DNA of 64,000 bases from Anaerolineae bacterium UTCFX1. Its GTDB lineage: Bacteria > Chloroflexota > Anaerolineae > Anaerolineales > Villigracilaceae. Both the position numbers and the translations under genes were made by a program. Below the pieces are notes generated by a model that searched no databases, had not been told where the DNA came from, and saw only the letters and a list, made by a program, of their open reading frames with translations. This document shows positions 2,427 through 16,815 of this stretch, one piece after another. Position 1 is the first letter of the stretch. Each line of letters opens with the position of its first letter. Where the stretch lies: positions 17,225 to 81,224 of the forward strand of contig MWTB01000027.1 of NCBI GenBank assembly GCA_002050275.1, in the 5' to 3' direction.

Positions 2427-3689
2427 CTAGCGCTCGTTCTCCGCCTTGAGCGGCAGATAGCGAATGGCGAGACTGAACATGAGCAGCCAGTAGGAGATCA
2501 CTAGCGCAGCGACAGAAAACTCCACCCAAGTAGGCGCGTAGGAGTTAACGATAATGGTCGGCGTAAAGGGCGCGTATGTAGGAGCGGCGATTAACCCTGA
2601 GAAATTGTAATTCCAACGCATAAGGATGGCGGCGAAGATTGGTATGACTGCAAACGCCATCAGATAGCGGAAGTTTTTGATTGATTTCGCCGCGAGCAGC
2701 ACGGAGCCGGCGATGATGGGCAGCAGCGCCTGTCCGATCCAAAATGACAACGAGTAAGGAGCGACTGCGTTCAGCGCTTCAGTTTGCAGGCTGATGTTGC
2801 GATCGAACGAATAGTAATTGGTGACCGCCCAATCCCATAGGCGCAGATAGGTGAGCAGCAACGTCACGCCGCCGGAGAGCCGCGCAACGTCGTATAAAGC
2901 GCTATCTTCAACTGTTCCGGGGCGCATGACGCGGAAGACGATAACGCCTAAAAAGAATAACAGCGCCGTCCCGCCGCTCATTGCGGATAAAACGAATTGC
3001 ACTGGCGCGCTTTGATTGAACCAAACGCCGCGTCCCGAAATGACGGAGTATGTCGCGCCGAGCGAAGCTTGGTGGAGAAGCGATAACGTCAGCCCGATGA
3101 TGGCCAGGGCGGGGCCGGCTTTGTGCAGCCAGTGAGCGATCGTTCTAGCGGCAGAGGCGGCTTTTTTGACAACGGGAAATTTCTTATAGAGCGGATGATC
3201 CGTGAAGAAAGGGTGTTCCACAATGATCGGCGCCATTTCGGCGACCAGCACAGTCAGGTAAAGCACCACGCACATCGTCACTTCCCAGAGGAGCGAATGA
3301 GGCTGCCAGAATACGACCGGGTGCCAAAAACGGAGCGGTTGACCGAGATCGAACAACAGCACCATGCCGGCGGTGGAATATCCGAGGAATCCGAGCAAGA
3401 CCGCCAATTTTCCGATCGTTTCGAATCGTTTCAATCGCAGGAGGTAAACGATCACGCCGAATACGAACGCCGAGCCTCCCATAGCGATGGAGGAGAGATC
3501 AATAGAGATCCATAATCCCCAAGGGACGCGGTTGGAAAGCCCTGTTACTTGTAGACCGTCGCGCAATACGGTGAACGCCCCCACCAGCCCAAAGAGCAGC
3601 CCGGCGACCAGCAACCCCACCCAGTAGGGGAAGATGTCAACATTGTGTTTTCCGATTTGAAGTTTAGGACGATGAATCGTTGTTTGCAT
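2427..3689 (-). CDS. NrfD/PsrC/DsrP-like polytopic quinol-interacting membrane subunit
   Basis: About 420 aa, almost entirely hydrophobic helices. It abuts the stop of the Tat-FeS gene. Size and composition fit the 10-helix NrfD family. Start set at ATG 3689 (AAGGAAG SD 6 nt upstream). TTG 3695, which overlaps the upstream stop, is an alternative. Confidence 0.8.
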   Translation of the reverse strand: MQTTIHRPKLQIGKHNVDIFPYWVGLLVAGLLFGLVGAFTVLRDGLQVTGLSNRVPWGLWISIDLSSIAMGGSAFVFGVIVYLLRLKRFETIGKLAVLLGFLGYSTAGMVLLFDLGQPLRFWHPVVFWQPHSLLWEVTMCVVLYLTVLVAEMAPIIVEHPFFTDHPLYKKFPVVKKAASAARTIAHWLHKAGPALAIIGLTLSLLHQASLGATYSVISGRGVWFNQSAPVQFVLSAMSGGTALLFFLGVIVFRVMRPGTVEDSALYDVARLSGGVTLLLTYLRLWDWAVTNYYSFDRNISLQTEALNAVAPYSLSFWIGQALLPIIAGSVLLAAKSIKNFRYLMAFAVIPIFAAILMRWNYNFSGLIAAPTYAPFTPTIIVNSYAPTWVEFSVAALVISYWLLMFSLAIRYLPLKAENER

Positions 3690-3691
3690 GA

Positions 3692-4522
3692 TCAACTTCC
3701 TTGGAATGGATTTTCTGCCTTCGGATCGGGGGGGATGTAGTATACCCGCGGCTTTGTGCTGAGTTCCTCGCGCAGGCGGAGAGTGACTTTAGCGTTTGCC
3801 AACGCTTCGGAGATTGGGCTTTCGGAATCGTTCAAGTCGCCGAAAACGCGGGCAGATGTGGGGCAGGCGACCACGCAAGCGGGCGTCGCTTGCGAATCTA
3901 CGCCGGGCATAAGACCTCGCTCCAGACCCGCGTCAATGCGATGTGAACAAAACGTGCATTTTTCCACTACGCCGCGCGGGCGGTTGGGAACTTCAGGGTA
4001 TCCGAAAGTAGGAGATTGGGGGCTTAACTTGATGGGTTTCTTCCAGTTAAACACGCGCGCTTCGTATGGGCAGGCAATCTGGCAATAGCGGCAACCAATG
4101 CATAGGTCGTAATTCATCGCCACGATTCCGTCGGGACGCTTGTACGTCGCACCGACGGGGCAGACGTGTACGCACGGGGCTTCTTCGCAGTGCATACATG
4201 GGCGTGAAAGGAAGAACTCATCGCCTGATTGAGTCGTTTCTGTGGTGACTACGCAATAGCGCATATCTTCGGCGAGATTATTGACTGCGTCGCAAGCGAA
4301 CGTGCAATACTGACAGCCAATACAGCGATTAATATCAATCAACATGCCCCACTGATGTTTGCTTTCTTCTTCGGAGGCGGCGCGCGCGGCTATTTTTGCG
4401 GACGGGATGAATTGAGTTACGCCGGCGGCGGCGACCATTGCTCCAGCCAGTTTCAGAAAGTCGCGGCGGGTTGTTCCTGCGTTCTCTTCCGCATTTACCT
4501 GCTTGCTTTCATGTTCCGTCAT
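3692..4522 (-). CDS. Tat-exported 4x[4Fe-4S] ferredoxin-type subunit (NrfC/PsrB/DmsB-like)
   Basis: Twin-arginine signal TTRRDFLKLAG. Four Cys clusters: CIGCQYCTFAC, CMHCEEAPCVHVCP, CIGCRYCQIACP and CTFC...CVVACP. The 385-aa track ORF is an Arg-rich over-extension that overlaps the haem gene. Start set at ATG 4522, preceded by a GGAGAG SD. Confidence 0.9.
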   Translation of the reverse strand: MTEHESKQVNAEENAGTTRRDFLKLAGAMVAAAGVTQFIPSAKIAARAASEEESKHQWGMLIDINRCIGCQYCTFACDAVNNLAEDMRYCVVTTETTQSGDEFFLSRPCMHCEEAPCVHVCPVGATYKRPDGIVAMNYDLCIGCRYCQIACPYEARVFNWKKPIKLSPQSPTFGYPEVPNRPRGVVEKCTFCSHRIDAGLERGLMPGVDSQATPACVVACPTSARVFGDLNDSESPISEALANAKVTLRLREELSTKPRVYYIPPDPKAENPFQGS

Positions 4523-4545
4523 TGTTTTCTCTCCTCGCCCCTCAG

Positions 4546-5364
4546 TTAGGGTTTTTTCCTGTTTGCCGAGCCCGGTTCGCGACCGAATACCGCCCATGCG
4601 GCAACTCCGCCGATGATGACGCCCGCCAGCGCGTATACCCAGGCTGGCAGATGAACGCCGCCTTGCGGCGCGGTCGGGGGCGTTTGTTCCGCTGGAACTT
4701 GTGTGACCAGAGCCTTCGGGTTTGCCATTGCGTTCACTTCTACCCCGGCGTCGAGCATTTCTCTGGCTTGATGGAGATCGGTGTGGCAGTTGCTGCAAGT
4801 TGACGCTGATATGTTCATTGAGTGATCCTTGCCGTCGCCCATATGACAATTAACGCAACTGAGTCCCGCCGCGAAGTGAGTGGACTCGACCATATTGCGC
4901 ATCTCAGCCTTATGGCAATTTTCGCAGACAGTGCGCGCTTCAGATGCGACCTTAAGCCCCTGCGAATGCTGTTCATGGCAACTGACGCAATTTAAGCCGA
5001 CCGCTGCATGTTGGCTGGCAGCCATCTCGCTGGCGACGTTCTCTTTAGAGGCGCTGCCGTGACACACCAAACAAGTAGTCTCTTCGCTCTCCACGGTATA
5101 TTTTGCAGTTTCAGGATGCGTCCCCGCGCTATCGGCGAGTTTGTGGCAAACGGTGCAACTGACGTTGTGTTCGCGATGCGGGCTGCTCTCCCAGAGCGCT
5201 GCAGGCTGTTCATGACAACGTAGGCAATCTTTTAAGTCTTGCTGAGCCGCTTCCGCTGGCGCGATTGCAGAGACTGTTTGAGCGGACATGAGAACGAGCG
5301 CGGCGAAAACGGCAAATAGCGTAAGCGCTCCTGCAATAAAAAAAAGAGATTTTGTCGGTTTCAT
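4546..5364 (-). CDS. Heptahaem c-type cytochrome with N-terminal signal and C-terminal TM anchor
   Basis: Seven CXXCH motifs: CLRCH, CTVCH, CLVCH, CVSCH, CENCH, CVNCH, CSNCH. N-terminus is MKPTKSLFFIAGALTLFAVFAALVLMSAQTVSA. The C-terminal hydrophobic helix is HLPAWVYALAGVIIGGVAAWAVF. Start chosen at ATG 5364 (GGAG 10 nt upstream); ATG 5400 or 5373 are possible. Confidence 0.9.
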   Translation of the reverse strand: MKPTKSLFFIAGALTLFAVFAALVLMSAQTVSAIAPAEAAQQDLKDCLRCHEQPAALWESSPHREHNVSCTVCHKLADSAGTHPETAKYTVESEETTCLVCHGSASKENVASEMAASQHAAVGLNCVSCHEQHSQGLKVASEARTVCENCHKAEMRNMVESTHFAAGLSCVNCHMGDGKDHSMNISASTCSNCHTDLHQAREMLDAGVEVNAMANPKALVTQVPAEQTPPTAPQGGVHLPAWVYALAGVIIGGVAAWAVFGREPGSANRKKP

Positions 5365-5454
5365 TGTTTGCATTCTCCGTAAAAGAGCGGAATTCTTCAT
5401 TAACGATAGTATCGGTTAATGCCAACGCAAGTTAGTGTAGACTGTCATAAATTT

Positions 5455-5543: not shown

Positions 5544-7733
5544 CTACGGCCGCGCGTAAGCGCTCACGTTGCCGCCGAGATCTTCGATCGAGTCGATCAG
5601 GAACTGGATGACGAACTTTGCGTTGTGAACGTACGCGCCCGGGTCTTTCTGAACGTACTGATAATTAAACGCGGCTCTCATAAGGCGAGGCGTCCATGCC
5701 GCGTAGCCTTTGCCGTTTGCGTCGAAGAAGTAGGGGTAGGCGTTTCCGTTATAGACGAGGAGACCGCCATGCGTTTCAGAGTACGTCTGCATCTGAGCGT
5801 AGAGGGCTTCAGCCAGCGTTGAGATTTCGCCGGAGATGCCTTCCTGCACATCGCTGTCGCCGTCGTAGTCCGCGTCGCTTTCGCGGATTAGAGCCGGGTT
5901 CGAAACGCCGTGACAGGTCTCGCAGGCTTTGATCTTAGGTTCGAGCGCGTGCACGTCATGGCAATCCTGGCATTTGTTGACCCTGCCATCCGGCTTAGCG
6001 TGCATAAATTCGCCAACGTACTGCTTGCCTTCGTAGAGATATGCGCCTTGTGCGTCTACACCGAACAGCGTCGAGCCAGCTGCAAAGTAATGAATGTTCT
6101 TGAAGCGGATCTTCGGATCGACTGTATCGAGGTCTTTGCCGCGTAAGGCGTTATTTACGCTAGTTGTAGATTCAAGCCCTTGGTGACAAGCGATACATAA
6201 ATTTGAATCATCGGGTAGATACTTTCCGTCTGCGTCTTTACCGCCGTAGCTGACTGTCTTTCCGCTGGGGAAAGTGACGGAATTAATTGCGTAACGATCA
6301 GGGAAGGAAGCTTCGTTGTGACAAGTAGAACATTGGAAGCCGTTGCTGGCGGGCAGCGCTCCCAGCCCGACGATTTGCGTCGTTCCATTTGCGGCGACGA
6401 CCGTTGTGCCGCCGTTTTGGATAAACTGCGGGAGCCCTTCGGCAGTGTGACATTTTGCGCAGGTATACGGCACGACGCCTCCGCCTTCCGCTTCGCCATC
6501 CCAATGACGGAACGGTTCGGTATTGCCGGCGAAGTGCCCCGCGTCGGTGCGCGCCAGTTTGACGACGTCGCCGCCGAGGTCGGCGATCGAGTCGTATAGC
6601 AGTTGGACGACATATTTATTACCGTGCGCGAACGCGCCCGTATCTTTGAGAGAAACCTGATAATTGTAGGCGGCTTTGAGCAGACGAGGCGTCCATGACG
6701 TGAAAGCGTTCGGGAAGATAGCTTCGCGTTCGTCTATCTCGCCGTTCGAGTTGATATCTTTGAAGAAGTACGGATAGGAGTGGTCGTCGTAGAGTAAGCC
6801 AGTGCCTACAGTTTGCGCGGCGTACGCTTGCATTTGAGCGTATAGAATCCTTTGCAAACCTTGGATTTCGTAATACATACCTTCGCGCGTATCGCCGTCG
6901 CCGTCATAATCGCTCAACGAGCTGACCATACGGATGGATTTAAGATCTTCTACCGCGCTTGCGCTGGGATGACATACCGAACATTCGCGCACTTTGACTT
7001 CCAACGTGTGCGAGTCGTGGCAGCCAATACAGGTGTCGTAGCCGGGCACATGATCGTTTTTCGAGTCGTAAGCCATGCCGTCGTATTGGTAGCCGCCGAG
7101 AGCCTTATTGCCGTACAGCGTCGCCGCCGCCGCGTAATAATGGATGCCGTTGAAGCCGAAAGCTTGATCATTGCCTTGATTGTCTTTGACGGGAGCGACG
7201 ACCGTATCAGGATGATCCGCTGCGCTGAAGAGCTCGATCTGTGCGTCTACGCTGATCTTCGATTCAAGCCCCTGATGACAGTCCATGCAGCGGGCGTCGG
7301 CGCCGGCGGTAATCGTCGCACCGGAAGGAAAGGTTACCGTTGTTCTTGAAACGGTGACCGAATTATGACAGGTTACGCATTGAATGCCTTGCGATTCAGC
7401 CGCCGGGACGGCGGCATCCACTTTATTTGCCGCGCTGCCATCTACGCCGAGGAAGTCTTGATAGCCTGCGCTGGTATGACATTTCGCACAATAGGTCGGA
7501 ACTTCGGCTGGGTCTTCTTCATCCCAGTGACGGAAGGGATAATTTAAAGCGTTCGCATGGCCGCTTTTTTCCCAATCTGCCAAAAAGGGCGTTTCAAGAA
7601 CGCTTGTAGGAGGAGGCGTTTCTACGGCAGTGGGTTCTTGAGGAGCGGCGGTTGGCGTGGCTCTGCAAGCGACGAGAATCGCAGTAAAAATGAGCGTTGC
7701 GCCTATAACGATTAAGATGCTTTTGAGTTTCAT
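5544..7733 (-). CDS. Decahaem c-type cytochrome lipoprotein built from two tandem pentahaem repeats
   Basis: Signal peptide plus lipobox (ILVAC). Ten CXXCH motifs: CAKCH, CVTCH, CMDCH, CIGCH, CSVCH, then CAKCH, CSTCH, CIACH, CQDCH, CETCH. The two halves align by eye (FRHWD...CAKCH...CHQGLES...DYDGD.D...YPYFF...WTPRL..AA.NYQ). GGAG SD lies 8 nt upstream of the ATG. Confidence 0.92.
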   Translation of the reverse strand: MKLKSILIVIGATLIFTAILVACRATPTAAPQEPTAVETPPPTSVLETPFLADWEKSGHANALNYPFRHWDEEDPAEVPTYCAKCHTSAGYQDFLGVDGSAANKVDAAVPAAESQGIQCVTCHNSVTVSRTTVTFPSGATITAGADARCMDCHQGLESKISVDAQIELFSAADHPDTVVAPVKDNQGNDQAFGFNGIHYYAAAATLYGNKALGGYQYDGMAYDSKNDHVPGYDTCIGCHDSHTLEVKVRECSVCHPSASAVEDLKSIRMVSSLSDYDGDGDTREGMYYEIQGLQRILYAQMQAYAAQTVGTGLLYDDHSYPYFFKDINSNGEIDEREAIFPNAFTSWTPRLLKAAYNYQVSLKDTGAFAHGNKYVVQLLYDSIADLGGDVVKLARTDAGHFAGNTEPFRHWDGEAEGGGVVPYTCAKCHTAEGLPQFIQNGGTTVVAANGTTQIVGLGALPASNGFQCSTCHNEASFPDRYAINSVTFPSGKTVSYGGKDADGKYLPDDSNLCIACHQGLESTTSVNNALRGKDLDTVDPKIRFKNIHYFAAGSTLFGVDAQGAYLYEGKQYVGEFMHAKPDGRVNKCQDCHDVHALEPKIKACETCHGVSNPALIRESDADYDGDSDVQEGISGEISTLAEALYAQMQTYSETHGGLLVYNGNAYPYFFDANGKGYAAWTPRLMRAAFNYQYVQKDPGAYVHNAKFVIQFLIDSIEDLGGNVSAYARP

Positions 7734-7899: not shown

Positions 7900-8349
7900 T
7901 TATGGATAGTTGGCGTAAATTTCCTGCGTCCCATCGGCGTAGAACAAGATCACATTAAAAGGTTCGGCTTCTACGCCGGCAACCTCCATACCGGGCGAGC
8001 CAATAGGCATTCCGCCGACGGCTATCCCAAGCGCGGCGGGTTGTTCTTGTAGCAGGCGTTTGATCTCTCTAACGGGAACATGTCCCTCGATCACATAGCC
8101 GTCTACGATAGCGGTATGGCAGGATTGAAGTTCAATGGGAACATGATATTTAACTTTGACGGGAGACATATCTCGCATATTTTCTTCCGTTGGCTTAAAC
8201 CCGTTGTCTGCGACGTAGTCAGCCCAGGCGCCGCAACAGCCGCAAGTGGGCGAGCGATAAATCGTGATGGGAATCCCGTCTGCGGTTTGGCTTGCACAAG
8301 CGCTCAACAAAACGGCAAGCGCAGCCAGCAGGCTGTAAAACTTTTTCAT
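7900..8349 (-). CDS. copG: DUF411/CopG-family periplasmic copper-binding lipoprotein
   Basis: Lipoprotein signal LLSAC. It carries the diagnostic SPTCGCCGAW (CxCC) motif, plus CHT and the MPIGSPGME motif typical of DUF411. AGGAG SD is present. Confidence 0.85.
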   Translation of the reverse strand: MKKFYSLLAALAVLLSACASQTADGIPITIYRSPTCGCCGAWADYVADNGFKPTEENMRDMSPVKVKYHVPIELQSCHTAIVDGYVIEGHVPVREIKRLLQEQPAALGIAVGGMPIGSPGMEVAGVEAEPFNVILFYADGTQEIYANYP

Positions 8350-8370: not shown

Positions 8371-9246
8371 TCAACTTAATAGAAATCCCACTCCGCTTCC
8401 AAGCGCGAAGAGTATAAACGTTAGTAAGGCGTTTGCTTGCGCAGGGATGATTTGAGCGGTTGTTTCTGGGTTCGCAAGCAATCGCTTAGACGCGGAAAAG
8501 GCTGGAACGACGGCGATTAGCCCCAGCCAGAGCGCGGGGGAAAATTGTAGAAGCGGCAGAAGCAGCGCAATCAGGAATGCGACCGCCATGATAGCGACGA
8601 ATAATCGGCTTGCAGGCTTTCTTCCCAAGAGCACCACGAGCGTTTGTTTCCCGGCGGTTTGATCTGCGTGAAAATCAGGGAATTCGTTGATAATCAGAAA
8701 CGCCGCGATGAAGACGCCCAGCAAAGCGGCGACCGAGATGATCGCAGACGATACGGTTCCGCGCTGGACGAGATACGTCCCCGCGCCGATCAGCGGCCCG
8801 TAGGACGCAGCAACTGCTAATTCGCCCATTCCGCGATATGATAGTTTCAAAGGCGGAGCATGATAGAAGAAAGCGAGCGCTATGCCGATAATTCCCAGCC
8901 ACAAAACGGACGGCTCTCGTTTGAGAAGGATAATGAGCCCTGTAATGCCGCCGATCGCATAACCAGCCAACGCAATGCCAGCCGTCTGACGTTTCGTCAA
9001 TAACTTGTCTACAAGGACGCGTTTGCCGCCCGAAAAGGGAGAGCGATCTTCGGGCATAACCGCTTGATCGTTCCCGCTGTTCCAATCGAATATTTCGCCG
9101 GAAGCGTTTTTAGCGATCTCGATGGCGAAGATTCCGATAAGCGTCGCTGCCAACCATCCGAAATGAAGCGTTCCATCTGACGCCGCCGCGCACGCGCCCA
9201 GAAATATAGACGCAAAAGACGCCAGAGAGATTTTCGGATCTGCCAA
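8371..9246 (-). CDS. UbiA/MenA-like polyprenyltransferase (N-terminus uncertain)
   Basis: Polytopic protein. Second Asp-rich motif is NEFPDFHAD. The first motif is the variant NASGEIFD (Glu in place of Asp). The frame is open upstream to 9315 with no ATG/GTG/TTG. AAGGAG at 9289-9294 sits 6 nt before ATA 9282, so the true start may be non-canonical. Confidence 0.75.
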   Translation of the reverse strand: MADPKISLASFASIFLGACAAASDGTLHFGWLAATLIGIFAIEIAKNASGEIFDWNSGNDQAVMPEDRSPFSGGKRVLVDKLLTKRQTAGIALAGYAIGGITGLIILLKREPSVLWLGIIGIALAFFYHAPPLKLSYRGMGELAVAASYGPLIGAGTYLVQRGTVSSAIISVAALLGVFIAAFLIINEFPDFHADQTAGKQTLVVLLGRKPASRLFVAIMAVAFLIALLLPLLQFSPALWLGLIAVVPAFSASKRLLANPETTAQIIPAQANALLTFILFALGSGVGFLLS

Positions 9247-9496: not shown

Positions 9497-10510
9497 TCAC
9501 ATCAGAAATTTACGGATCAATGTATCCGCCAACAACCCCAATAAGAAATAGGAACCGAAAGCGCGATTATACACAAACGATAGCGGGGCGAAGTATAGGG
9601 GCCAGCCGCCCTGTCCTTCGGGAAAATCTGCGGGACGTTCGGCGGGTTTGGGCTTAAGGAAGGCTGGAACAACTTGTCGTAAGCTGGGCAACGCCAACAG
9701 CGTGACTAGAAGCACGGGCGAGAAGACTTTGCTCCCAATCAGGTGAAAGATGATCAAATAGGGAAATATCATCATCCCAATGACCATGTAACGCGACGCT
9801 TTCTCGCCGATAACGACCGGCAGGGTGTGAATTCGTTTTTCTCGATCGATCGCAAGTTTGTCAATGTGCTTACCGAAGATAACCGTCGTTACGCCGAAAG
9901 CGTAGATTGAGCCGATGAGCGCCGCGTTCCAACTCCAAGCGCCGGTGATAACGTAATGACCGCCGCCGACCATGAGCGGACCCCAAACAAGGAAAACAGC
10001 GATCTCTCCAAGGGCGATATATTTCAAGGGCCAGGTGTAGAAGAGGAGTAAAAATGCGCCCGCACCCAATAGGAACCACGCTTGCGGCGCATAGCTGTTG
10101 CGCGCCATGAGGTAGAGTCCACAGACGAATGCGAGCGCGACCGTGAAGATAAAATAGGCGAGATGTTGTCGTTTTGTGAGAAGGTGGTTTTCAAGCGGAT
10201 GCGGACCGTACATAGTGCGAAAGTAATTCTTTTGGTCTACGCCGCGCGCATGGTCCACATAATCATTTAGGAGGTTATTGCTGGCGTGCGCCAAGACCAA
10301 ACCCAGCGTTACCGCGATCCAGGCGGAGAAATTGAACGAGGAGTCGCGCCAGGCTAACAGTCCCGCGAGAGCCGCAGACAGCACAGTCATCACAAGCACC
10401 GCCGCACGTGTCGAGATCAGCCAGCGTGAAATTGCGTCAAGCTGATCCCATTCTTCTTTTGAGACGTTTGGAATTACTGTAAGAGCCTTGCGCCACATGG
10501 ATACGTTCAT
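9497..10510 (-). CDS. UbiA/MenA-like polyprenyltransferase, long form (paralog of 18300..19355)
   Basis: NNLLNDYVDHARGVD matches the NxxxDxxD motif of MenA, and the second motif is HIDKLAID. The protein is polytopic. Start moved to ATG 10510 (MNVSMWRK) by alignment with the paralog. This also removes the overlap with the rrf2 gene. Confidence 0.8.
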   Translation of the reverse strand: MNVSMWRKALTVIPNVSKEEWDQLDAISRWLISTRAAVLVMTVLSAALAGLLAWRDSSFNFSAWIAVTLGLVLAHASNNLLNDYVDHARGVDQKNYFRTMYGPHPLENHLLTKRQHLAYFIFTVALAFVCGLYLMARNSYAPQAWFLLGAGAFLLLFYTWPLKYIALGEIAVFLVWGPLMVGGGHYVITGAWSWNAALIGSIYAFGVTTVIFGKHIDKLAIDREKRIHTLPVVIGEKASRYMVIGMMIFPYLIIFHLIGSKVFSPVLLVTLLALPSLRQVVPAFLKPKPAERPADFPEGQGGWPLYFAPLSFVYNRAFGSYFLLGLLADTLIRKFLM

Positions 10511-10535
10511 GAATCGTCCTTTTCTGCTGATTTGA

Positions 10536-10931
10536 TTAAATGAATTGCGCAAATGTTGTGTTGCGTAATTGCGTCGTTAGGGCGTCTTGTGCTTCGCGCC
10601 AAACAAGTTGCATGGCGCAGTTTTCTTCGAGCGCGCACAGACCGACTCGGTCAACGCAGACGTTGAGTTGAACGGGCCCGTCAATTGCTTCGATGACTTC
10701 GAGCATGGTGATTTGGCTGGGATCGCGCGCGAGAGCGATGCCTCCTCGCGCGCCGCGAGAGGTGTGGAGGAGCCCCGCAATTGAGAGTTGCGAGATGATT
10801 TTCGCTAGAAACGAAGAGGGAATGCATTGCGCTTTTGCGATCTGACTGGTGGAGATGCGCTTACCTTGGCTGGCGCGCGTAAGGTGTAAGATCGCCCGCA
10901 AAGCGTAATCGGCTTGACGTGTAATTTGCAT
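10536..10931 (-). CDS. Rrf2-family transcriptional regulator with a Cys triad (possible Fe-S sensor)
   Basis: MQITRQADYALRAILHL...SSFLAKIISQL...TSRGARGG is a typical Rrf2 wHTH. CVDRVGLCALEENC gives C-x7-C-x5-C spacing as in IscR/NsrR. Start set at ATG 10931. Confidence 0.88.
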   Translation of the reverse strand: MQITRQADYALRAILHLTRASQGKRISTSQIAKAQCIPSSFLAKIISQLSIAGLLHTSRGARGGIALARDPSQITMLEVIEAIDGPVQLNVCVDRVGLCALEENCAMQLVWREAQDALTTQLRNTTFAQFI

Positions 10932-11102
10932 GTCTGCCTTTCTCTCATTTTGGCATGAGTTGCTCAACCTGTGTGAAGGTTTGAGCCTTGTTTGACGATA
11001 ATTCGGACAATTAACGTCCTTGATGCGTAGTGTATGGAAGAATGGAATAGTAGAGAAGTGATGGATGTCATCAATGTAGAGGAAGAATCGCGTTTGGTAG
11101 GC

Positions 11103-11198: not shown

Positions 11199-11468
11199 GT
11201 GGACACGAAGGCTACGCTCCGACGTTTGAGAACGGTTGAAGGGCATTTACGCGGCATTATTCGTATGGTCGAAGAAGACGCGTATTGCATTGACATAATT
11301 CGTCAGATTCAAGCGGTGGATGGGGCATTGAGTAAGGTTAGCGGTCAGATCCTTGAAAACCACTTAAATTCATGCGTCATTACTGCGATTCAAGGGAATG
11401 ACAAGGAGGAGCGCCAGCGCGTATTGAAAGAAATTGCCGAAGTGTTTGATATGTCTACAAAAGTGTAG
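11199..11468 (+). CDS. csoR: CsoR-family copper-sensing transcriptional repressor
   Basis: RLRTVEGHLRGIIRMVEED.YCIDIIRQI.AV..AL is the CsoR/RcnR fold. The C-H-C ligand set is present (YC...HLNSC). GTG start with AGAGGAA SD. Confidence 0.9.
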   Translation: MDTKATLRRLRTVEGHLRGIIRMVEEDAYCIDIIRQIQAVDGALSKVSGQILENHLNSCVITAIQGNDKEERQRVLKEIAEVFDMSTKV

Positions 11469-11820: not shown

Positions 11821-13938
11821 ATGAACGACGCCCACAAAACGCATAAAGACTATCATCATGAAGAGATGAAACACGATTCGCATGCGCAGCCAGATGTGAA
11901 GCCGTCTCATTCCGCCCACTTGGGACACGAAATGCACGATTCGGCTTCTGCACAAAATAAACATGCGAGCCATACAGATCATAGCGGACATGAAGACATG
12001 TTCCGCAAACGGTTCTGGGTCTCGTTGTTGTTGAGCATTCCTGTTTTGCTTTACACGCCCATGCTCCAGATGTGGTTCGGGTTCAAAATGCCTGAATTCA
12101 TGGGCAGTCAGTGGGTGGCGGCGCTGTTCGCCGTGATCGTTTTCATCTATGGCGGCGTGCCGTTCATTCAAATGGCTCTCCCAGAGATTCGCAACCGCCA
12201 GCCTGGCATGATGCTGTTGATCTCGCTGGCGATCTCGGTCTCGTTTGTGTACAGCCTCGCCGCGTTGTTCTTCAACTTGGGTGAAGGGTTCTTCTGGGAA
12301 CTGGTCACGCTGATTGACATCATGCTCTTGGGGCATTGGATCGAGATGCGCAGTGTCCGTCAGGCTTCGGGCGCGTTGAACGCGTTGGCAAAGTTGATGC
12401 CCGACACAGCCGAACACATCATGCCCGACGGCAGTGTCCACACGATGCCAGCCTCTTCGTTGAAGTTGAATGATCTCGTGCTTGTCCGCCCTGGGGCGAG
12501 TATCCCTGCCGATGGTGTGGTGGCAGACGGCGAGTCTGATGTGAACGAAGCGATGATCACGGGCGAGTCGCTTCCTGTGAAAAAAACTGTCGGCGCGAAA
12601 GTGATCGCGGGCAGTATCAACCAAGATGGAAGTCTGCGCGTCCGCGTATCAGCCATCGGAGAACAAACCGCGCTGGCTGGCATCATGCGCCTGGTTCGTG
12701 ATGCGCAACAAAGTAAATCGAACACGCAAATATTAGCCGATAAAGCGGCGGGTTGGCTTTTCTATCTCGCCATCGGCGTTGCCGCGCTCACTGCTATTTT
12801 ATGGACGATCGCTCTGGGCTTCGACCTCTTCACGTTGGAGCGCGTTGTCACCGTGTTGGTGATTGCGTGTCCGCACGCGCTGGGGCTGGCTGTCCCGCTC
12901 GTCGTGGCGATCAGCACCACGTCCGCCGCGCAGAACGGGATCTTAGTCCGCAACCGTTTGGCGCTCGAAGCCGCGCGTGAAATTGACGTGGTGATCTTCG
13001 ACAAAACTGGCACGCTCACGAAAGGCGAACAGGGCGTGGTTGCCGTCAAAACCAACGGCGTGGATGAAGACCACGCTCTTGCCCTCACCGCAGCTGTTGA
13101 GGCGGACTCGGAGCACATCATCGCCCGCGCGATCCGCGATGCGGCGAAAGAGAAAAATTTGCAACTGCCAGTCGTCTCCGATTTTGAAGCCATCAAGGGA
13201 CGCGGCATCCGCGCCAAACACAACGGGAAGGATTTGTGGGTGGGCGGTCCGCGCCTGTTGGAGATGCTCGACATTCAACCCGATTCGGCAATTTCGGAAT
13301 TCGCTTCTTCCTCAGGGACAAAGGGTCAGACCGTCGTCTATCTGATCGTTGATGGGAAGATTTTCGCCGCGCTTGCATTGGCAGATGTGATTCGTCCTGA
13401 AAGTTACGAAGCCATCAAAAAACTTAATGAGATGAACGTGCAAGTCGCCATGCTGACGGGTGACAGCAAAGATGTCGCCAAAGCCGTCGCCGATGAACTT
13501 GGAATCAAATTGTATTTTGCCGAAGTATTGCCTGAACATAAAGATGAAAAAGTGATCGAACTTCAGAAGCAAGGAAAGAAAGTTGCCATGGTCGGCGATG
13601 GTGTCAACGATGCGCCCGCTCTCACTCGCGCCGACGTAGGCATTGCAATCGGCAGTGGCACCGACGTGGCTGTTGAATCCGCTGGGATCATCTTGGTGAA
13701 AAGTAATCCGTTGGATGTGGTCAAGATATTCAAATTGAGCCGCGCCAGTTACAACAAAATGATCCAAAACCTGATCTGGGCGTCGGGCTACAACGTTGTT
13801 GCTTTGCCGTTAGCCGCAGGCATCCTTGCCTCGGCTGGGATATTGCTTTCGCCAGCCGTAGGCGCACTGTTGATGTCGGTGAGCACCATCGTCGTGGCGA
13901 TCAACGCCCAATTACTGCGGCGCGTAAATTTAAATTAA
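11821..13938 (+). CDS. copB: P1B-type copper ATPase, CopB-like (His-rich N-terminus, CPH motif)
   Basis: The first 60 aa are His-rich and there is no HMA domain. The TM6 motif is [12 protein letters not shown] (CPH). DKTGTLT, MLTGD and [10 protein letters not shown]-type signatures are present. Confidence 0.92.
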
Positions 13939-14391: not shown

Positions 14392-16815
14392 ATGACCGAT
14401 ACAAAACAACTTACCCTTCCTATCACAGGTATGACCTGCGCCAACTGCGTCGCGACAGTAGAGCGCAACCTTAAGAAATTAGACGGCGTACAGACCGCCG
14501 TTGTTAACTTATCGTCTGAGCGTGCAACGGTGGACTTTGACGCGACAAAGCTGGCGTTGCCTGATTTTATCGCGCGCGTTAATCGCGCAGGATACGGCGT
14601 AGCGACGGGCGAAGCGGACCTCGTGATTAAGCGCATCGCAGACGATAATGATGCACGCCGACTCGAAGCGGCGTTGCTCAAATTGGACGGCGCGCTCGAA
14701 GCGCAAGCATCGTACGCCAGTGGAAAGGCGCGCGTCAAATATGTTCCAACCATTGTCAGCCAATCGGAGATTCGGGCGGCGGTGACGCAGGCGGGTTTTG
14801 AGGCGATGGAACTTGGCGGAGACGCCGAAGATGCTGAAGCCATTGCGCGTGAGCATGAAGTTAATGAACAGTTTCGGATGTTCGTTATCGGTTTAATCTT
14901 TACCGCGCCGTTGTTCGTCTTTTCCATGCTGCGCGATTTCAATTTATTGGGGCATTGGGCGCACGCGCCCTGGGCGAATTATGCGATGATGATCGTCGCT
15001 GCGCCGGTTCAGTTCTATGTGGGCTGGCAGTATTACGTCGGCGCGTACAAATCTTTGCGCAACGGTTCCGCCAATATGGACGTCCTTGTTGCGATGGGCT
15101 CTACGGTCGCCTACGTTTATTCCATATTTATTGCCTTCGGAATAATTCCAGGACATGTCTATTTCGAGACTGCCGCAGTGATCATCACGTTGATCCGGCT
15201 TGGAAAATATTTGGAAGCGCGCGCCAAAGGACGCACCTCTGAAGCGATCAAGAAGTTGATGGGTCTTCGCGCTAAAACAGCGCGCGTCATTCACAATGGG
15301 GAGGAAGTTTCCGTTCCGGTGGACGATGTTCGCGTCGGCAACGTCGTCCTTGTGAAGCCCGGTGAGATGATACCGGTAGACGGCGTGGTCATCGAAGGAA
15401 AATCCAGCGTGGACGAATCCATGCTGACAGGCGAGTCGTTGCCGGTGGAAAAAAAGCCAGGCGACGCAGTCGTTGGCGCGACGTTGAACAAACTTGGATT
15501 GCTGAAATTCGAGGCGACGAAAGTCGGTAAAGAGACCGCGTTGGCGCGCATTATCAAGCTTGTGGAAGATGCGCAAGGCAGTAAGGCGCCGATTCAAAGA
15601 CTTGCCGATCAAGTTTCCGCTGTGTTCGTACCAGTGGTAATCGTCATCGCCGCGCTGACCTTTGCAGGTTGGTATTTCCTCGGCGCTCCGGGCGACCTGA
15701 CTCGCGCACTAATCAATATGGTCGCCGTGCTCGTAATTGCATGTCCATGCGCGATGGGGCTTGCCACGCCTACGGCGGTGATGGTAGGGACGGGCAAAGG
15801 CGCGGAGATGGGCGTGCTGTTCAGAAATAGCGAGGCGTTGGAGCGCGCGGGAAAAGTGAACATTGTGGCGCTGGATAAAACTGGAACGCTTACAAAGGGC
15901 CAGCCTGCCGTGACGGATATTGTGTCTGCCGGTGCGGATTGGAACGAAGATAAAATCCTCTATATGGCGGCTTCCGCAGAAACAGGCAGCGAACACGGAT
16001 TAGGCGAGTCTATCGTAGCCGCTGCAACCGCGCGCGATATTCGGCTGAGCGAAGCGTCGGATTTTAAAGCGTTGACCGGTATGGGCATTTCGGCAAGCGT
16101 GGACGGTCGGCGAGTCCTGATCGGCAACCTGCGCTTGATGAACGCGGAAGATATTTTCGTCCAGGACATTCACGCGGAGATGGAGCGGCTTCAGACGGAG
16201 GCGAAAACCCCAATGATCGTTGCCGTAGACAATGAGGTCGCAGGCGTGGTCGCCGTGGCGGATACGTTAAAAGAACATTCAAAAGACGCGATTGGCGAAT
16301 TGCATCGCATGGGTTTGAAGGTGGCGATGATCACGGGCGACAACCATAAGACGGCTGAAGCGATTGCAAAACAGGTGGGCATTGACCGAACGCTAGCAGA
16401 GGTGTTGCCGGAAGGGAAGGCAGACGAAGTAAAGAAATTGCAAACAATGGACAATGGTCAACGCTCTGCGATCTCTGTAGTTGCCATGGTTGGCGACGGC
16501 ATCAATGATGCACCGGCGCTCGCTCAGGCGGACGTTGGCATCGCGATCGGCACAGGAACGGACGTTGCCATGGCGGCGGCGCCTGTGACTTTGATGAGCG
16601 GCGACTTGCGCGGCATAGCGAAAGCAATCCGCTTATCGAGAAAGACATTATCAACGATCAAACAAAACTTGTTCTGGGCGTTCTTCTATAACGTGATCCT
16701 AATTCCCGCCGCCGCACTGGGTTGGTTGAACCCAATGCTCGCCGCCGGCGCGATGGCTTTTAGCAGCGTCTTTGTTGTGACGAATAGTTTGAGGCTAAAA
16801 TCGTATACAGGTTAA
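14392..16815 (+). CDS. copA: P1B-1 copper-exporting ATPase CopA (CPC motif)
   Basis: The N-terminal HMA carries GMTCANC. A second HMA-like repeat lacks CxxC (IADDND). [12 protein letters not shown] (CPC), DKTGTLT, ITGD and VGDGINDAP are present. Confidence 0.95.

Follow-up and report, generated by a model that had tools for sequence, protein, structure and literature searches.

A decahaem lipoprotein of two NrfA/OcwA-like modules is encoded with an NrfCD-type module in an Anaerolineales genome

OcwA, the surface terminal reductase of a Gram-positive (monoderm) bacterium, consists of a globular haem domain and a C-terminal three-helix bundle reminiscent of NrfA, and its haems 5-9 superpose on the NrfA core (PMC6703420). 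Evolution within this superfamily is known to have grafted an N-terminal c554-like module onto an NrfA-like C-terminal module (PMC9250108). Operons that combine an NrfD-type subunit, an iron-sulfur (FeS) protein and multihaem cytochromes are known quinol-linked modules in Nrf, Mcc, alternative complex III (ACIII), Qrc and Nhc (PMC8076601), and those of Methanoperedens have been proposed to encode menaquinol:cytochrome c oxidoreductases that serve extracellular electron transfer (PMC7082337). Here we describe a locus that joins features of both groups, in a stretch of 64,000 nucleotides from Anaerolineae bacterium UTCFX1 (contig MWTB01000027.1, positions 17,225 to 81,224; hereafter the window). 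It encodes an exported, lipid-anchored ten-haem protein made of two NrfA/OcwA-like modules, together with an NrfCD-type module and a heptahaem cytochrome. All coordinates below are those of the window and are collected in Table 1.

The 729-residue decahaem protein contains 21 cysteines, namely C23 and the twenty that belong to its ten CxxCH motifs, and a motif count found no haem-type motif besides these ten. Residues 41-400 and 401-729 form a single collinear BLASTP alignment with 146/358 identities (41%; 217 bits, E = 6e-73), and MAFFT agrees, with ~120 identical columns and 49% identity over the aligned columns. The repeat is real and far beyond chance. At the DNA level the halves are only ~70% identical, and in patches (the best covers 136 bp, E = 5e-13); the repeat is therefore old and has been maintained as protein. 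A tandem duplication of a pentahaem module of about 325-330 residues had been read by eye in a first-pass annotation of this DNA, which the alignments bear out; the span given there, 5559-7541, correctly corresponds to residues 65-725. The motifs quoted for the two halves are likewise present, namely FRHWD, CAKCHT, C..CHN, C..CHQGLES, IHY[YF]AA and C..CHD.H.LE.K...C..CH, followed by DYDGDGDTREG or DYDGDSDVQEG, YAQMQ.Y, YPYFF, WTPRL..AA.NYQ and DSI.DLGG.V. One detail holds in part: the Tyr said to precede the first Cys in both halves is immediately adjacent to it in the N half and lies one residue farther off in the C half. Each module of ~330 residues thus comprises five haem motifs, five extra conserved His and a C-terminal bundle of three long helices. 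The protein has one hydrophobic segment, at its N-terminus, and the lipobox found there is retained in 67 homologues, with C23 invariant and A22 at least 90% conserved.

Structure prediction gives a compact fold for the module. An AlphaFold model of the N module alone, built with 21 diverse single-module relatives, reached a mean predicted local distance difference (pLDDT) score of 89.8 and a predicted template-modelling (pTM) score of 0.91, and the full-length AlphaFold2 model, built with 67 homologues, reached 82.7 and 0.75, respectively. The predicted secondary structure is mostly helical with short strands only; in the single-module model, the helices round the haem sites are short, and the C-terminal end is formed by three long ones (model residues 238-261, 301-315 and 324-337). 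This agrees with the earlier suggestion that the haem-poor part of each half is a structured domain. With the single module as query, the best Foldseek match in the PDB was OcwA of Thermincola potens (6I5B; E = 5.7e-3, probability 1.00), at a template-modelling (TM) score of 0.45-0.47 over ~360 columns and 15-16% identity, and it was followed only by non-significant matches (E ~1) to the NrfA-type enzymes NrfA, ONR and MccA. OcwA was found with the single-module model only; the full-length two-module model returned NrfA-type matches alone, all at E >= 0.15.

Profile comparisons place the module in the same neighbourhood. No Pfam or NCBIfam model reaches its cut-off for the module, the only matches being generic and CxxCH-driven, and a PDB sequence search with the whole protein returned chance matches only (E >= 0.078). 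A profile of the module matched NrfA chains in the PDB at E = 8.8e-7, a match that rests on the haem-motif stretches. With hhalign, E. coli NrfA was aligned at 82.6% probability over haems 1-2, and the use of a 152-module profile with greedy extension gave 275 collinear columns (E = 1.4e-4, probability 53%). In this longer alignment the five motifs are all paired, and NrfA H94, H275, H301 and H391/393 lie opposite H59, H228, H242 and H370, respectively; the register near H198 is unreliable. Because the five motifs and four distal His are collinear with E. coli NrfA, we consider the module a remote relative of NrfA and OcwA. It is not NrfA itself, because it is devoid of CxxCK (all ten sites are CxxCH, as is site 1 in 152/152 modules), does not conserve the catalytic Arg and Tyr of NrfA (the Arg of FRHWD is variable, and the position of Tyr216 holds Arg in the family and Leu in the window protein) and scores below the model cut-offs. 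The Pfam NrfA model PF02335 has no match to the window protein at E <= 0.01 and appears only at E >= 8.5e-4, below its cut-off, in 10 of 21 modules. NrfA variants with CxxCH do exist (PMC9250108). We conclude that the module is a remote, collinear and hitherto unnamed branch of the NrfA/OcwA superfamily. The first-pass annotation had left the repeat unassigned; it was right in that there is no clear match to a well-characterised pentahaem family, and the module is nevertheless not an orphan fold.

Two other assignments were considered and rejected. An NrfB-like reading fails on size (~330 residues versus ~140-190) and on scores, the NrfB models giving 19-25 bits against cut-offs of 166-184 (NF008659, 25.3 versus 184; TIGR03146, 22.1 versus 166.6), with PF22678 at 21.5 versus 27; neither NrfB nor the NrfA core is clearly matched by the halves. 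An MtrC-like reading fails in that the protein is without beta-barrel domains and no MtrC structure is among the Foldseek matches; the MtrC/OmcA model TIGR03507 scores 17-18 bits against a cut-off of 209. PF22113 gives weak matches in 19 of 21 modules (best E = 1.3e-8), the window N module scoring 19 bits against 30. Single-module relatives carry the RefSeq name 'polyheme membrane-associated cytochrome C', for which no corresponding NCBIfam model scores here.

The decahaem gene is followed on the same strand by genes for a heptahaem cytochrome, an FeS protein and an NrfD-like subunit, spaced by 143 bp, 23 bp and a 4-bp overlap, and this is the gene order of E. coli nrfA-nrfB-nrfC-nrfD. The heptahaem protein has hydrophobic segments at residues 16-50 and 249-268 and generic multihaem Pfam matches. 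The FeS protein scores above the cut-off of the NCBIfam model for DsrO (221 bits, cut-off 200) and of the Tat signal model TIGR01409, contains Pfam Fer4_11 and also matches the QrcC, TtrB and NrfC models. Its mechanically called open reading frame, 3692-4849 on the minus strand, begins 327 bases upstream of the probable ATG (4522), overlapping the heptahaem gene at its 3' end; the long Arg/Ser-rich N-terminal extension that would result is probably not translated. The NrfD-like subunit has at least 8 hydrophobic segments and its best NCBIfam match is QrcD (185 bits, below cut-off). A Tat-exported four-cluster ferredoxin and an NrfD-family subunit are thus encoded together, as in an NrfCD-type quinol dehydrogenase.

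Table 1. Features of the decahaem locus, in window coordinates; residue numbers are those of the decahaem protein.
Feature	Coordinates	Strand	Details
Decahaem lipoprotein gene	5544..7733	-	729 residues plus stop, ten CxxCH; from the open reading frame list, motif count and self-alignment
Signal peptide with lipobox L-V-A-C	7665..7733	-	Residues 1-23; seen directly in the sequence
Pro/Thr/Ala-rich tether, predicted disordered	7590..7664	-	Residues 24-48; pLDDT < 50 at 24-46 in the full-length model
N-terminal pentahaem module	6534..7589	-	Residues 49-400; haems 82, 119, 149, 235, 251; conserved His 59, 198, 228, 242, 370; three-helix C-terminal part
Acidic loop 1, N module, DYDGDGDTREGMYYE	6867..6911	-	Residues 275-289; directly before the first long helix
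Acidic loop 2, N module, DINSNGEIDERE	6723..6758	-	Residues 326-337; EF-hand-like, 12 residues; absent from the C module
C-terminal pentahaem module	5547..6533	-	Residues 401-729; haems 425, 468, 513, 588, 604; conserved His 548, 578, 595, 703, the first conserved His being H400
Acidic loop 1, C module, DYDGDSDVQEGISGE	5826..5870	-	Residues 622-636
Heptahaem cytochrome c	4546..5400	-	284 residues, seven CxxCH; N-terminal signal/anchor and C-terminal transmembrane helix
Tat-exported four-cluster FeS protein (NrfC/DsrO/QrcC-like)	3692..4522	-	Likely start ATG 4522 after a GGAGAG ribosome-binding site
NrfD-family integral membrane quinone-interacting subunit	2427..3695	-	422 residues; Pfam NrfD E = 6.6e-16

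The association recurs among relatives. In a sample of 44 homologous loci with full 8-kb flanks, a multihaem, FeS and NrfD trio lies within 8 kb at 31, ten of which have it arranged adjacently as in the window, and either this trio or a cytochrome b with a nonahaem (multihaem) module is present at 38. Two relatives illustrate the second arrangement (L002, 10406-14202; L004, 10362-14126): downstream of the decahaem gene come genes for a nonahaem cytochrome, a cytochrome b of the Ni_hydr_CYTB type and a NapC/NirT-like heptahaem protein of 564 residues. This order is seen in many relatives, which carry a more divergent multihaem, FeS and NrfD trio on the opposite strand; the decahaem protein is therefore coupled there with two different quinol modules.

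Based on the above data, we propose that the decahaem protein is the terminal cytochrome of a menaquinol-fed chain that hands electrons to an acceptor at or beyond the cell surface, a reading in which we place middling confidence. The lipid anchor and the disordered tether of ~25 residues would fix the protein to the outer face of the cytoplasmic membrane. There the two abutting modules would each offer a globular five-haem core in NrfA order, followed by a three-helix bundle and by acidic loops that probably bind Ca2+. Menaquinol would be oxidised at the NrfD-like membrane subunit. The NrfC-like FeS protein, exported by Tat, would relay the electrons to the membrane-anchored heptahaem protein, and this in turn to the lipoprotein with its ten haems, which would pass them to an acceptor outside the membrane. 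Both this outward direction and the acceptor are what we infer; by comparison with OcwA in Thermincola, oxidants that are extracellular or within reach at the surface would be the likeliest acceptors, for example flavins, humics, minerals of Fe(III)/Mn(IV) or partner cells.

Several points weigh against this proposal. Any function of the family is so far a prediction. The TM score of the OcwA match does not reach 0.5, and profile alignment with NrfA is weak, at a probability of 53-83%. In NCBIfam, the membrane and FeS subunits match Qrc/Dsr-type models best, and complexes of this type run electrons towards the quinone pool. By analogy with NrfCD-coupled enzymes of the NrfA superfamily (NrfA, MccA), which act on soluble substrates, an extracellular acceptor would not be required. 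Single-module relatives in Rhodobacteraceae adjoin nqr genes and not NrfCD; the module is therefore not tied to one partner. Lastly, contigs of one sludge metatranscriptome span the whole operon, which is compatible with expression; this is weak evidence, because the depth is equally even over neighbouring genes and intergenic DNA, and DNA carry-over is possible.

The Qrc-like affinity of the partner subunits bears on the direction of flow. Electrons could run inwards: a donor outside the cell, for example Fe(II), a cathode, a syntrophic partner or a shuttle in its reduced form, would supply them, and they would pass through the decahaem protein and the heptahaem/FeS proteins to the menaquinone pool, on the model of Qrc, which takes electrons from periplasmic cytochrome c3. 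This would suit an NrfD-like subunit that matches QrcD best and an FeS subunit that matches DsrO above its cut-off as well as QrcC; multihaem chains are intrinsically reversible, and a filamentous Chloroflexi isolate performs both anodic and cathodic electron transfer (PMC5808234). The scores themselves fall far under the Qrc cut-offs, however (QrcD, 185 versus 570 bits; QrcC, 172 versus 400), there is no donor-specific enzyme adjacent, and the same subunit types oxidise quinol in Nrf, Mcc and ACIII (PMC8076601). We regard inward flow as distinctly unlikely.

The conservation of the module bears on whether it is a conduit or an enzyme. We compared 152 complete modules, namely the two of the window protein and those taken from the 150 best representatives. 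None of the five CxxCH motifs varies in this set, and five non-motif His are 97-100% conserved: H59 (its C counterpart being H400), H198/H548, H228/H578, H242/H595 and H370/H703. Two of these, H198 and H228, lie between haem sites 3 and 4. No conserved Met was found across the family, which makes His-Met haem ligation unlikely, and the five His fit either four ligands and one non-bonding His or five ligands. The residue within CHQG-x-ES, after haem site 3, is Arg in ~86-90% of modules and Leu in both window modules (L156, ~7264-7266; L520, ~6172-6174, minus strand), as it is in L005 and L006, the two relatives with 97% identity. At this position a considerable subgroup shows Arg/Val, and the Leu change is parallel in the two window repeats.

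These residues invite comparison with a catalytic role, in which the decahaem protein would reduce, or oxidise, a soluble compound (nitrite, hydroxylamine, NO, sulfite or a similar small molecule) and the operon would play the part of NrfABCD or MccACD. Each module would then have a five-coordinate haem 1, which makes two active sites per polypeptide, and H198/H548 would be the non-ligating distal His. The gene order equals that of nrfABCD, and beyond the motifs and four distal His that are collinear with NrfA there is this fifth invariant His between sites 3 and 4, where a non-bonding catalytic His is a hallmark of NrfA that is kept in OcwA (PMC10716430, PMC9250108). OcwA and OmhA, which retain the non-bonding distal His, reduce nitrite and hydroxylamine (PMC6703420, PMC9250108). 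The conserved Arg of CHQG-x-ES occupies the position of the catalytic Tyr216 of NrfA, and the lineage inhabits nitrogen-removal and anammox-type sludge. Yet this pocket Arg is Leu in both window modules, five conserved His for five haems suit an all-bis-His protein equally well, and the missing CxxCK, the variable FRHWD Arg, the replaced Tyr216 and the PF02335 scores under cut-off that separate the module from NrfA all count here too. The lipid anchor and long tether suit surface exposure better, without excluding an enzyme for a soluble substrate. We judge a catalytic role of this kind unlikely, although it is the chief rival to our proposal. Its more specific form, in which each module has an open NrfA/OcwA-like haem 1 pocket with H198/H548 as the non-bonding distal base and the whole is a two-active-site, calcium-stabilised surface enzyme, appears to us rather improbable. 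If the pockets were open, the fusion would be a covalent version of the NrfA dimer, and sludge Anaerolineales could respire or scavenge nitrite, NO and hydroxylamine from nitrifiers and anammox bacteria in addition to having an extracellular electron outlet.

The module carries two kinds of acidic loop. Loop 1 follows the consensus D-[YF]-[DN]-G-[DN]-G-[DN]-x-x-E-G-[IL]-x-x-E, and its conservation in the family is 94% for D275, 84% for D277, 89% for G278, 84% for G280, 84% for E284 and 93% for E289. Against the 12-residue EF-hand pattern D-x-[DN]-x-[DN]-G-x-[ILV]-x-x-x-E, loop 1 (DYDGDGDTREGM) matches positions 1-7 only. Loop 2 (DINSNGEIDERE), which was overlooked in the first-pass annotation, is closer to a canonical EF-hand than the DYDGDGD loop: it matches positions 1, 3, 5, 6, 8, 9 and 12 and fails the last position of PROSITE PS00018. 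Its consensus is D-x-[ND]-x-[ND]-G-x-[VIC]-D-x-x-E; a relaxed EF-hand pattern finds it in about half of the 152 modules, and the window C module has a deletion of ~12 residues at this site. Pfam EF-hand_5 matches weakly in 4 of 21 single modules. Ca2+ binding by one or two acidic loops per module is plausible from these patterns.

The number of modules per protein varies in the family. A profile of the two halves matched 1538 clusters at 50% identity with E <= 1e-3, 371 of them with E <= 1e-30. When only those proteins among the best 150 were counted whose every match is a full module, 35 had one copy (~355-420 residues, five haems), 57 had two and one had three; a second three-module protein is P0063. 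Counting homologues by repeat number, a check put forward with the first description of the repeat, thus finds the module in one, two or three copies. Within a protein the modules are on average 40% identical (range 28-65%). In a nearest-neighbour analysis, 51/57 N modules are nearest to N modules of other proteins and 52/57 C modules to C or third modules; single-module proteins are closer to N than to C modules (43% versus 36% mean identity). Because N modules group with N and C with C across proteins, one old duplication founded most two-module proteins.

The same data dispose of the idea that a decaying gene without a specific role was duplicated recently or by accident, or that its repeat arose in assembly. 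We found nothing in its favour. The low and patchy DNA identity of the halves, the persistence of two modules and of all ten motifs in hundreds of species at 55-97% identity, the grouping of modules by position and the recurrence of the identical sequence in many independent sludge datasets refute it, and we attach practically no probability to it.

Homologues of the protein fill more than 4600 clusters at 90% identity. The top ones are 63-75% identical, come from metagenome-assembled genomes of Anaerolineales and other Chloroflexota and are labelled hypothetical or 'cytochrome c3 family'. In a species-representative genome set, relatives occur in 406 stretches; the best 80 of these are nearly all from Anaerolineales, including Candidatus Villigracilis and the 'CFX' genomes of anammox reactors, and two of the 80 encode proteins 97% identical to the window protein. 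Remoter relatives, either partial or with two modules, carry the labels KSB3, WOR-3, Planctomycetota, Acidimicrobiia and Binatia, and single-module relatives occur in cultured Rhodobacteraceae, e.g. Limimaricola, Salipiger and Frigidibacter. An identical gene recurs in numerous datasets from bioreactors, wastewater and activated sludge, besides the metatranscriptome mentioned above.

Some relatives place the module in other surroundings. Three representative proteins (P0220, P0237, P0121) fuse it to other domains. In one, the module comes after a HAMP/methyl-accepting chemotaxis protein and a membrane segment, which suggests a possible redox-sensing receptor; the other fusions are a 1439-residue ATPase/TPR/Med-like lipoprotein and a protein with three Ig-like repeats followed by three modules. 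In Limimaricola hongkongensis (L086, 8001-9089) and Frigidibacter sp. (L087, 8001-9095), genes for single modules of ~362 residues with five haems directly adjoin the Na+-NQR operon (nqrA-F, apbE, nqrM); that of Frigidibacter lies 23 bp upstream of it on the same strand. We know of no report that links a periplasmic pentahaem cytochrome with NQR.

A copper-handling cluster lies just upstream of the cytochrome operon in the window (7900-8349, minus strand; 11199-11468, 11821-13938 and 14392-16815, plus strand). Encoded there are a lipoprotein with DUF411, a repressor resembling CsoR and two ATPases: a His-rich P-type one with a CPH motif, and a CopA-like one that combines an MxCxxC domain with a CPC motif. 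Between these copper genes and the cytochrome operon lie genes (8371-9246, 9497-10552 and 10536-10967, all minus strand) for two prenyltransferases of the UbiA family and a regulator of the Rrf2 type, which may take part in the prenylation of quinones or haem.

In activated sludge, anammox granules and sediments, filamentous Anaerolineales rank among the most numerous bacteria, and their respiration is known almost solely from gene lists. The literature on the group makes general statements only, to the effect that Anaerolineae are rich in multihaem cytochromes, and we found no description of this module family in the literature on Anaerolineae/Chloroflexota multihaem cytochromes, OcwA or Villigracilis. 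The family has members in 406 or more species genomes and, at 50% identity, in ~1500 clusters; neither Pfam nor NCBIfam has a model for it. It offers a concrete and testable candidate for a terminal cytochrome of Chloroflexota extracellular or nitrogen-oxide respiration, and a compact, self-contained five-haem building block that is used in one, two or three copies and also fused to other domains. Its interest is moderate, the family being widespread in an ecologically dominant and poorly understood group without being a new kind of system.

Compared with the NrfA-type proteins, the window protein represents an architecture that is new to this known superfamily: the whole C-terminal module is repeated in tandem together with its helix bundle, and acidic loops, a lipid anchor and a tether are added. 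OcwA (TherJR_2595, PDB 6I5B) and OmhA share with it the succession of a globular haem domain and a C-terminal three-helix bundle; they too are cell-surface proteins of hosts without a classical outer membrane and belong to the NrfA-type lineage, not to the MtrC type. Their nine haems, however, come from a c554-like tetrahaem fused to one NrfA-like pentahaem part, whereas the window protein carries the NrfA-like pentahaem part twice, complete with a helix bundle each time, and no tetrahaem N-module. It has a lipobox and a tether, and its acidic DxDGDG and EF-hand-like loops are undescribed for OcwA, whose penta-coordinate haems have been demonstrated by experiment. With NrfA (PF02335) it shares five haem sites spaced 1-2-3, gap, 4-5, a GH ~23-28 residues before site 1, a His 7 residues before site 4, another between sites 4 and 5 and one in the long C-terminal helices. 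It differs in that no residues match the active-site Ca ligands of NrfA (the Glu215/Tyr216 region reads QG[R/L]ES), in module size (~330 versus ~450 residues), in its tandem duplication and in its lipid anchor. Duplication of an entire C-terminal module, helix bundle included, adds to the 'grafting and pruning' picture of multihaem evolution.

The operon compares in a similar way with known electron-transfer loci. It resembles E. coli nrfABCD in its order of cytochrome, second multihaem protein, NrfC and NrfD, and departs from it in the partner cytochrome, a heptahaem protein with a C-terminal membrane helix where E. coli has the soluble pentahaem NrfB. Like MtrC, OmcA, MtrF and UndA of Shewanella, the window protein is a ten-haem surface lipoprotein with an internal duplication of a pentahaem plus non-haem unit; MtrC and OmcA consist of four domains (beta-barrel, pentahaem, beta-barrel, pentahaem), whereas the non-haem part here is helical, and the locus has an NrfCD-type module in place of an MtrAB porin partner. 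With the NrfD-family modules MccACD, ACIII ActABC, QrcABCD, NhcABCD and the Methanoperedens operons it shares a three-part logic of a cofactor-free membrane NrfD-like subunit, a periplasmic four-cluster FeS protein and one or more outer-face multihaem cytochromes (PMC8076601, PMC7082337). The window subunits reach the cut-off of no named complex except for the FeS subunit with DsrO, and DsrMKJ genes do not accompany it. None of the described NrfD-family complexes has a tandem NrfA-like decahaem lipoprotein, which sets the present locus apart from them.

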